From Promethearchaeota archaeon (GTDB lineage Archaea > Asgardarchaeota > Lokiarchaeia > Sigyniarchaeales > SOKP01), in contig RDOA01000069.1 in the NCBI GenBank assembly GCA_011364925.1, positions 1 through 13,310 on the forward strand: a DNA stretch of 13,310 nucleotides, given 5' to 3'. Below, piece after piece: positions 903 to 1,940 of the stretch (within the stretch, counting starts at the first letter, position 1; each line of letters begins with the position of its first letter). A program made the position numbers and the translations under genes. The notes under the pieces were generated by a model. The model saw only the letters and a program-made list of their open reading frames with translations, did not search any database and was not told the DNA's origin.

Positions 903-1940
903 ATGCTCTCGCTTGATGGGTGGATTAATGGTCTTTCCTCATTGATTATTTTACTCTCGGGCTTGTTATTTGGATTCTTTTTAATATATAAAGCAATAAG
1001 AACCCACGCAAAATTATTAGGTGTAATGGGTATTGCTATGATATTACTTGGATTAGTCTTTTTGGGTTTAACTACCGAATTTTTTGTAGTGCTTTTATCT
1101 GGGATGAATCTAGACAATTCAGGGGGGATTATAGGCATTTTAGGGTATTTTTGGGTTGCCTTTGCTGTAATACCAGCGGTCTATATAGGTTCAGAGTTAA
1201 TTTTTCCGAAAGTTAAATGGTATTTGGTTGTTGTTTTTAGTGTATTAGGTATTTTCTACGAATTAATACTTTTCCTTGATACGGCAAGTTCATTCAATTT
1301 TACATATCCAAATATTCCTGGAGAAGATCTAATTGACGATCCTTTGGTAATAGGATCACCTTTTTTCTTGTTCTTTCTAAGTTATGTAGGCATAAGTATC
1401 ATTTTTGATGGATTAGGGTGTTTAATTAAAGGCTTAAAATCAGAGGGAATCATAAGAAAGAAATTATTTTTTTTATCTTTGGGATTTTTAATATTTCTTT
1501 CAGTTGGTACATTAGACCAACTTCACCTTCCAGGTATCGTATTGCTTTTCGTCAGGATACCCATGATTGTAAGCTTTTGGTTGTGGTATGTGGGATTAAG
1601 GGAGGTATCGATAGAAAAGAAACCAAAACCAAAAAAGGAAGTTAAAGTTGAAGAAGGACTTTTTAGATTAATTCGAAGACCAGATAATATCACTGAAGAA
1701 GAGATTTCCATTTCCAAAGAGAAAAAGATCTGCCTTGTGTGTAAAGGGAAAGCTACAGGAATTACTTTTATTTGTACTGAATGTGAAGCAATTTACTGTG
1801 TGAACTGCTCTCAAGCAATTTCTAACTTGGAAAATAGATGCTGGGTTTGTAATGCTCCTATTGATCCCACGAAACCAGTTAAAGAAATTGTTAACCAGGT
1901 AAAACCTGAACTAGAAATAGATGTAAAAAAAAAGGAATAG
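903..1940 (+). CDS. Seven-transmembrane protein with C-terminal C4C4 RING-like zinc finger
   Basis: About 7 hydrophobic segments in aa ~8-232, then a Lys/Glu-rich linker, then C-x2-C-x10-C-x2-C-x4-C-x2-C-x10-C-x2-C (aa 277-316, nt 1731-1850). Confidence 0.85.
   Translation: MLSLDGWINGLSSLIILLSGLLFGFFLIYKAIRTHAKLLGVMGIAMILLGLVFLGLTTEFFVVLLSGMNLDNSGGIIGILGYFWVAFAVIPAVYIGSELIFPKVKWYLVVVFSVLGIFYELILFLDTASSFNFTYPNIPGEDLIDDPLVIGSPFFLFFLSYVGISIIFDGLGCLIKGLKSEGIIRKKLFFLSLGFLIFLSVGTLDQLHLPGIVLLFVRIPMIVSFWLWYVGLREVSIEKKPKPKKEVKVEEGLFRLIRRPDNITEEEISISKEKKICLVCKGKATGITFICTECEAIYCVNCSQAISNLENRCWVCNAPIDPTKPVKEIVNQVKPELEIDVKKKE

Follow-up and report, generated by a model that had tools for sequence, protein, structure and literature searches.

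A candidate receptor-type ubiquitin ligase in Lokiarchaeia: a seven-helix membrane protein with a C4C4 RING-type finger and its link to an accessory ubiquitin-like cassette

Caldiarchaeum has a soluble RING E3 cascade (PMC5654768), and such cascades have also been reported for Asgard archaea (bioRxiv 10.1101/2023.07.25.550441). In the srfp operons of Caldiarchaeum subterraneum, as in the Asgard E1/E2/RING E3 cascade, a RING-type finger is tied to genes for ubiquitin-like, E1-like, E2-like and JAB/Rpn11-like proteins. Here we describe P0001, a gene at positions 903 to 1,940 of a 13,310-nucleotide stretch of contig RDOA01000069.1 from a Promethearchaeota archaeon of the Lokiarchaeia (assembly GCA_011364925.1; the whole stretch is called the window below), whose product joins a seven-transmembrane (7TM) domain to a predicted C4C4 RING-type finger. 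As in the srfp systems, a hydrophobic residue is kept between the first two zinc ligands, and the associated modifier is a ubiquitin-like protein precursor (pro-Ubl) with a tail after Gly-Gly. Unlike in the srfp systems, the RING is of the C4C4 rather than the RING-H2 type, is located at the C-terminus of a 7TM sensor rather than in a small soluble protein, and lacks the Arg/Lys linchpin; furthermore, the enzymes are those of an additional, optional cassette with a P-loop protein at its head, and several dispersed RING paralogs are found for each enzyme set.

Eukaryotic multi-pass membrane RING E3s (Hrd1/gp78, MARCH and RNF; reviewed in PMC4021871) have a similar layout, with a cytosolic RING placed after a polytopic membrane domain. 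The structural matches of the finger studied here include the HRD1 RING, and the membrane domains of Hrd1-type ligases show no sequence relation to its 7TM domain. Unlike in these ligases, the membrane part is a 7TM sensor module common to histidine kinases and TIR proteins, and the ligase activity is putative. The HisKA_7TM family and the G-protein-coupled receptors (GPCRs) and rhodopsins likewise carry an N-terminal 7TM bundle with interchangeable cytoplasmic outputs, and the best fold matches of our domain are transmembrane (TM) domains of class C and adhesion GPCRs. To our knowledge, a RING output is not known for the HisKA_7TM or the GPCR/rhodopsin families. In the literature that we searched, no description of a 7TM-RING fusion or of the accessory cassette was found; Asgard '7TM proteins' and a cluster resembling class C GPCRs are mentioned in one report (PMC13734099) and may or may not correspond to the 7TM-RING family.

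Domain organization and conservation of the 7TM-RING protein

The original prediction, made from the nucleotide sequence and its translations, comprised seven TM helices, a charged linker and eight Cys residues with the spacing x2-x10-x2-x4-x2-x10-x2, and this anatomy was confirmed on an intact open reading frame (ORF) of 345 aa at window:903-1940(+). The features of the gene, supported in part by an AlphaFold2 (AF2) model of the whole protein built on 41 homologs and its predicted local distance difference test scores (pLDDT), are as follows:

903..1940, + strand: whole gene P0001, encoding the 7TM sensor domain, the linker and the putative C4C4 RING-type finger; intact ATG-to-stop ORF, 345 aa.
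903..1607, + strand: 7TM domain, aa 1-235, with the N-terminus predicted outside and the C-terminus inside; hydropathy, Lys/Arg distribution, AF2 pLDDT >90.
1278..1358, + strand: predicted extracellular loop between TM4 and TM5, aa 126-152, a candidate ligand-facing element; alignment conservation, AF2, positive-inside rule.
1608..1730, + strand: charged linker, aa 236-276, predicted to be cytoplasmic; a disordered K/E-rich part followed by a conserved segment.
1731..1877, + strand: predicted C4C4 RING-type zinc finger, C277-C316, with the conserved N-x-P-I-D-x-x-K-P tail to P325; Cys pattern, AF2, fold and profile matches.
1878..1940, + strand: variable, low-confidence K/E-rich C-terminal tail and stop codon; pLDDT <50 for 329-345, unconserved among the 41 homologs.

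The candidate ligands of the finger are C277, C280, C291, C294, C299, C302, C313 and C316, which reproduce the above spacing exactly and are followed by N-A-P-I-D-P. In the 41 full-length homologs (36-76% identical), all eight Cys residues are invariant or more than 90% conserved, and the same holds for the Leu-Val pair between Cys1 and Cys2, the Trp after Cys7, the L-E-N motif before Cys7 and the P-I-D..K-P tail. A segment of the linker, L-F-R-L..R-P..I-T-E-E-E..S-K-E-K-K, is conserved to the same degree, with residues F254, R255, I263-E267, E273 and K275 above 90%. The linker has pLDDT values below 50 for residues 239-257 and of about 90 from 257 on, where a helix of aa 265-274 is predicted to pack ahead of the finger. 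Across 208 finger-bearing proteins, the complete Cys pattern was found in 189, with spacing 10-13 / 4 / 10; in all 189, Cys7 is followed by Trp, and the two residues between Cys1 and Cys2 are Leu-Val in 170, the others having L-I, I-V, L-M, M-V or M-I. At the level of sequence, the eight-Cys pattern is not due to chance. Two further positions can be compared with the archaeal srfp E3, in which the Arg/Lys linchpin is required (R69A) and the hydrophobic E2-contact residue between ligands 1 and 2 is I30 (PMC5654768). A hydrophobic residue is present at the E2-contact position of the finger, and the residue after the last Cys is N in 109, D in 45, E in 13, G in 8, S in 7 and K in 2 of the 189 proteins, the window protein having N317.

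The finger is predicted to adopt a RING fold

A separate AF2 model of aa 247-345 was confident, with pLDDT of about 90 for residues 257-326. In this model, a helix is followed by strands at 288-290 and 297-299 and by a helix at 300-309 after Cys6, that is, by a beta-beta-alpha RING core. When the model was compared with the PDB using Foldseek, the top 50 matches were almost all RING or U-box domains (PRC1, HRD1, TRIM37, Rad18, RNF4, MDM2 and Cbl), and a VIA search of 48,161 chains, which is independent of Foldseek, likewise returned almost exclusively RING and U-box domains among its top 50. The leading VIA matches were Nse1 (Z 5.3, root-mean-square deviation (rmsd) 2.5, 52 residues aligned), the GATOR2 RING, the CesA RING and HRD1 (Z 4.8), and the top-50 matches of both searches generally fell at rmsd 2-3 A over about 50 residues. 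Thus, on the question of a RING versus a double zinc ribbon, the predicted fold and both fold searches side with the RING. Consistently, a finger-only profile (A3) built from 32 diverse sequences matched the PDB sequences of RNF4 (3.4e-5), TRIM37 (4.2e-4) and p44 (8.6e-4) with the Cys ligands in register; the cross-brace pairing of the ligands is that suggested by these alignments. The window finger itself is 36-64% identical to the fingers of the cassette-locus alignment underlying this profile and scores 2e-37 on it. Judging from the model, the finger is a C4C4 RING-type domain.

The resemblance to the C4C4 RING of TFIIH p44 that had been noted from the Cys spacing was borne out, p44 being among the three best PDB profile matches and at rank 10 (Z 4.8) in the VIA search. 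The C4C4 RINGs of TFIIH p44/Ssl1 and of CNOT4 are alike with the present finger in having eight Cys and four residues between ligands 4 and 5. Compared with p44/Ssl1, the 7TM-RING protein has no vWA domain and no TFIIH context, and the p44 match is no better than those of RNF4 or TRIM37; the likeness therefore points to a shared RING subtype rather than to demonstrated orthology. Membership in the p44 family was rejected, as Pfam C1_4 was not among the matches of the 7TM protein, which lacks the vWA domain.

Searches of the window protein against Pfam and NCBIfam gave nothing significant. The RING models matched it with E-values of 3.8 (zf-RING_5) and 9.3 (zf-RING_2), the B-box models with 0.22 (zf-B_box) and 0.12 (ANCHR-like B-box on the whole protein; 0.0049 on the tail alone), and the double zinc ribbon model DZR with 0.32. 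Among 54 family members, 10 matched zf-C3HC4_3 and 4 matched DZR at E<=0.01. A B-box assignment was rejected on account of the last ligand pair, which is C-x2-C after a 10-residue helical loop and not the H..H of B-box1. The only member seen above a curated Pfam RING cutoff was P0160 (zf-C3HC4_3, 36.8 versus 27 bits), a metagenome protein of 412 aa that carries two tandem copies of the linker-plus-finger module.

A sensor-type seven-helix domain with interchangeable outputs

Seven TM helices were delineated by both hydropathy and AF2 (pLDDT of the TM part >90), at about residues 4-34, 37-66 (kinked), 76-100, 102-125, 153-179, 183-205 and 212-232. Lys and Arg residues cluster in the loops after TM1, TM3, TM5 and TM7, the remaining loops being acidic or neutral, so that by the positive-inside rule the N-terminus would be outside and the finger on the cytoplasmic side of the membrane. 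The TM4-TM5 loop, which is acidic and devoid of Lys and Arg, would by the same rule lie outside; it contains short beta elements in the AF2 model and conserved residues D126, P136, G140 and L143 (P-G-E-D-L-I-D motif in the homolog alignment). This conserved loop is a candidate ligand site, a role that we infer from its position and conservation.

The same 7TM domain of about 235 aa is fused to HisKA and HATPase_c in P0191, P0214 and P0233, to PAS plus kinase in P0210, and to TIR_2 in P0109, P0185, P0215 and P0217, and it stands alone in 27 of 256 proteins (254 family members and two host operon proteins). It is thus a constant membrane module with interchangeable cytoplasmic outputs and behaves as a sensor input domain. 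The sensor-type role originally proposed for it gains support from these alternative HisKA-HATPase, PAS-kinase and TIR outputs.

By structure, the best Foldseek match of the domain was CaSR (E 3.8e-4, TM-score 0.42), and the best VIA matches were GABA-B (Z 14.0, rmsd 4.0, 226 residues aligned) and an adhesion GPCR (Z 13.8). Rhodopsins came next at Z 11-12, with sequence identity of ~10%. Since the GPCR matches (Z 14) are not clear of the rhodopsins (Z 11-12), only the 7TM fold class is shared: the modelled domain is GPCR/rhodopsin-like in fold only, and a claim of homology is unsupported. HisKA_7TM (PF16927) did not match the window protein, and 3 of the 54 relatives matched it weakly, with E down to 2.2e-4; the nearest named Atlas cluster is also HisKA_7TM (score 0.89), the domain being present in 10% of the cluster members. 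A whole-protein profile searched against PDB sequences yielded only noise, with TatC at 0.01. Hence, of the suggested comparison with HisKA_7TM, GPCR-like and rhodopsin folds, the shared 7TM fold class stands, and membership of any one family is not established.

Finger genes are linked to an accessory ubiquitin-like cassette

In related Lokiarchaeia, tandem arrays of 7TM-finger genes led us to a second cassette, distinct from the canonical ubiquitin operon described below. It encodes a P-loop protein of roughly 300 aa with an N-terminal domain and a G-x4-G-K-T motif, a JAB protease, a ThiF-type E1 (292 aa), a UBC E2 (187 aa) with an HPN motif and a catalytic Cys, and a Ubl. The last is a previously uncalled gene of 84-95 aa, convergent on the E2 in 61 of 64 loci (for example, L082:8864-9127(-)); in the sequences read, its product ends in Gly-Gly or has 1-5 further residues. 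Searching the cassette loci with the two host ubiquitin-like proteins found no Ubl, and the gene was found only by clustering unannotated small ORFs. Its best Pfam matches are all ubiquitin-like and below threshold (Rad60-SLD 1.6e-4, ubiquitin 0.054). Judged by its predicted proteins, the cassette provides every component of Ubl conjugation except an E3.

Linkage between this cassette and the finger was assessed in 18-kb windows centred on the cassette E2. In 47 of 64 cassette loci, a finger gene was present within 9 kb, and in 30 of 64 within 1 kb of the E2; 29 of 61 Ubl genes follow a same-strand finger gene at a distance of under 400 nt. In control loci at the canonical E2 of the same genomes (648 kb), a finger or 7TM gene was found in 0 of 40. 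Moreover, 66 of 67 genomes with the cassette E2 matched a finger-bearing query, as compared to 17 of 84 genomes without it; within the host genus (host not counted), the finger was present in 14 of 15 cassette-positive and 3 of 24 cassette-negative genomes. The association spans several genera and includes fingers on at least three unrelated TM domains. With flanks of only 1.5 kb, just 2-3 of 30 loci of the C65-type paralog showed adjacent JAB/ThiF genes, an artefact of the short flanks, as the 18-kb windows showed linkage. Thus, the finger family goes together with a dedicated E1/E2/JAB/Ubl cassette both in physical gene linkage and in its occurrence across genomes. In the host itself, JAB and E1 genes lie beside the finger paralog on contig C65, and the contig ends inside E1; in the closest relative (G136, L131), E2 and Ubl are both located just beyond the host break point.

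PADLOC picked up the JAB and E1 only through generic matches and did not recognise the E2, the finger proteins or the P-loop protein; the cassette is therefore not a catalogued defence system. Nonetheless, the tandem arrays, the uneven distribution and the TIR paralogs would be compatible with a defence-type role. Several other features of the cassette loci were observed. A conserved basic small ORF of ~53 aa, without a Pfam match, is found in the divergent region upstream of the P-loop gene at L082:5336-5494(-) and in 52 other cassette loci. In several genomes (L082:104-2719(+), with counterparts in L084, L085, L088 and others), the cassette is flanked by a gene for a form of the P-loop protein of 870-890 aa that has a carbon-nitrogen hydrolase domain fused to it. 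Finally, at L082:13625-15982(-), two Ras-family small GTPases (349 and 377 aa) with long N-terminal extensions are flanked by the cassette-linked 7TM-finger genes on one side and by a stand-alone 7TM gene on the other.

The canonical operon also ends with a membrane RING-like gene

The host genome, 3.9 Mb in 112 contigs, does contain ubiquitin, E1, E2 and JAB genes, on which the proposal of ubiquitin-like tagging depended. They form a canonical operon at G000:C19:25945-30158 (L081:6946-11158), in which ubiquitin (110 aa, with a short tail after A-G), E1, E2 and JAB are followed by the gene for a membrane protein, P0255. This multi-pass protein of 373 aa has a Thr/Arg-rich linker and a different RING-like finger, one Zn site of which looks degenerate; hhalign of the 7TM-RING finger against it gave a weak match (probability 25%). 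Of 40 relatives, 39 have a P0255-like gene no further than 9 kb from the E2 of the canonical operon. The canonical operon with its own terminal membrane RING-like gene is a layout parallel to that of the cassette and the finger gene.

Distribution of the family and paralogs in the host

More than 1000 relatives of the protein were detected at E<=0.001 in a library of 1.8 billion proteins, the named ones being from Promethearchaeota, Lokiarchaeia, and Hermod- or Thorarchaeota. The family is most abundant in one Lokiarchaeia family and is patchy there, even within the host genus. In the host, the finger is carried by three membrane proteins, namely the window protein and those encoded at C24:44878-45876 and on C65, the latter with a different TM domain. 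The 7TM domain has six close and three distant host paralogs, four of the close ones being ~235 aa long and having no output domain. The window gene is one of the dispersed paralogs, and the window contains no cassette gene. Among the sampled species genomes, none had a relative more than ~45% identical and none shared the flanking genes of the window, so that local synteny is uninformative for this copy.

Two observations concern the other host copies. At G000:C11:86784-86909(-), we found a decayed remnant of a finger gene. Its multi-TM ORF ends prematurely, and only the final Cys pair and the P-I-D-K-S-K-P tail are left, read in a different frame. The C65-type finger-membrane gene is followed immediately by a gene for a two-TM protein of 65 aa (L007:1285-1482(-); G000:C65), which is kept in 28 of 29 orthologous loci of other genomes (29 of 30 including the host C65). 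This conservation suggests that the small protein is a membrane partner subunit.

A putative receptor-ligase and its alternatives

We propose that the 7TM domain senses a signal and that the RING recruits the cassette E2 charged with Ubl and directs tagging, a reading that we consider fairly probable. The N-out seven-helix bundle would sense an extracellular or membrane signal, with the conserved acidic helix and the C4C4 cross-brace RING-type finger predicted to sit in the cytoplasm. The finger would most likely dock the UBC-type E2 of the accessory Ubl conjugation system and direct Ubl transfer onto the receptor itself or onto receptor-bound proteins, and the JAB protease would trim the tails of Ubl precursors and reverse the tagging. 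A single enzyme set would serve several dispersed sensor-RING paralogs, including the window gene. E2 docking, ligase activity, signal dependence and the substrates are what we infer here; the coupling of its family to the optional cassette makes P0001 a strong candidate for a prokaryotic receptor-type ubiquitin ligase, with ligase activity putative. Of the original proposal of a 7TM protein with a RING output linked to ubiquitin-like tagging, the anatomy, the predicted RING fold and cytoplasmic side of the finger, the sensor-type domain and the host enzymes are supported by computation, and the cassette linkage goes beyond it.

Several observations count against this reading. The Arg/Lys linchpin of activating RINGs is absent, with N, D or E in its place in 167 of 189 relatives, and a Trp replaces the usual Pro after Cys7; the RING of p44, one of the closest matches, makes mainly a structural contact. 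All structural support is predicted, the Foldseek E-values are all >=0.02 and the VIA Z-scores are only ~5, as expected for a 50-residue domain, and the window protein falls below all Pfam thresholds (best C1_2 0.07, B-box 0.2, DZR 0.3). As for the genomic context, related genomes are not independent, so that the linkage statistics are inflated and the counts are descriptive; the window copy is not adjacent to a cassette; and the cassette E2 and Ubl are missing from the host assembly because the contig breaks inside E1.

The N/D/E linchpin and the presence of p44 among the best profile and fold matches would also suit a RING fold without ligase activity, that is, a docking or scaffold domain tying the receptor to the accessory Ubl system, be it by binding the Ubl, the P-loop protein or JAB, or by marking the receptor as a substrate. 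Gene linkage is equally compatible with this, as it indicates a shared pathway and is silent on which step the finger serves. However, the hydrophobic Cys1-Cys2 pair and the invariant Trp are placed where RINGs contact E2, the cassette offers no E3 candidate besides the finger although it provides E1, E2, Ubl and JAB, the canonical operon likewise closes with a membrane RING-like gene, and Asn is able to act as the linchpin in Rbx1. We regard a pure docking role as rather unlikely, although it is the main rival. The window gene could also be a dispersed copy acting outside Ubl tagging, its finger being a treble-clef of the B-box, C1 or PHD kind used for dimerisation or for binding lipid or other proteins, and the protein a plain receptor or transporter regulator. 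Some members are named 'B-box zinc finger protein' by NCBI, C1_2 is matched by 20 of 54 members at E<=0.01 and the ANCHR-like B-box by 3, the window has no cassette gene, and finger genes occur in the 17 genomes without a cassette E2 mentioned above. Nevertheless, the close similarity of the window finger to the cassette-locus fingers, the C-x2-C form of its last ligand pair and the RING/U-box nature of the structural matches speak against this, and some cassette-negative genomes, the host included, are merely broken at the cassette; we consider this explanation improbable.

A last alternative, which we hold to be very improbable, is that the eight Cys are the ligands of two zinc ribbons in succession, a common appendage of prokaryotic membrane proteins unrelated to RING. 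The Cys spacing alone would also fit DZR, and the DZR scores of the window protein and of the four members given above speak for it. In the AF2 model, however, Cys pairs 3 and 4 are separated by a helix (aa 300-309) and pairs 2 and 3 by a beta-hairpin; zinc-ribbon proteins are absent from the top 50 of both fold searches, and the profile matches are RINGs.

Implications

Membrane RING ligases are regarded as a eukaryotic trait, as is the pairing of a single E1/E2 set with many substrate-specific E3s, and the archaeal ubiquitin systems characterised so far have a small soluble RING protein. It is possible, if somewhat short of probable, that Lokiarchaeia possess a receptor-to-ubiquitin pathway in which GPCR-like 7TM sensing switches a fused RING E3 working with a dedicated E1/E2/Ubl/JAB kit coupled to a P-loop protein, one enzyme set serving many diversified receptor-ligases. 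If so, the closest prokaryotic relatives of eukaryotes would have a sensor-coupled, membrane-bound E3 layer that follows the eukaryotic logic of few enzymes and many E3s and forms a prokaryotic forerunner of membrane RING ligases, with kinase and TIR domains as alternative outputs on the same sensor domain. Given that the family is concentrated in one Lokiarchaeia family and is patchy there, the 7TM-RING proteins and the cassette may be a lineage-specific accessory system rather than the ancestor of the eukaryotic machinery. All the partners needed to test the idea directly, from E1, E2 and Ubl to JAB and the soluble RING tail, are small and neighbour one another in relatives.

Neighbouring genes

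Downstream of the 7TM-RING gene and convergent with it, window:1947-3310(-) encodes a double winged-helix regulator (HVO_0163-like N-terminal HTH and HTH_24) and an ICMT/PEMT-like membrane methyltransferase, and no link of either to the 7TM-RING gene was seen. On the upstream side, the 7TM-RING gene starts 5 nt past a CoA-transferase-like gene.

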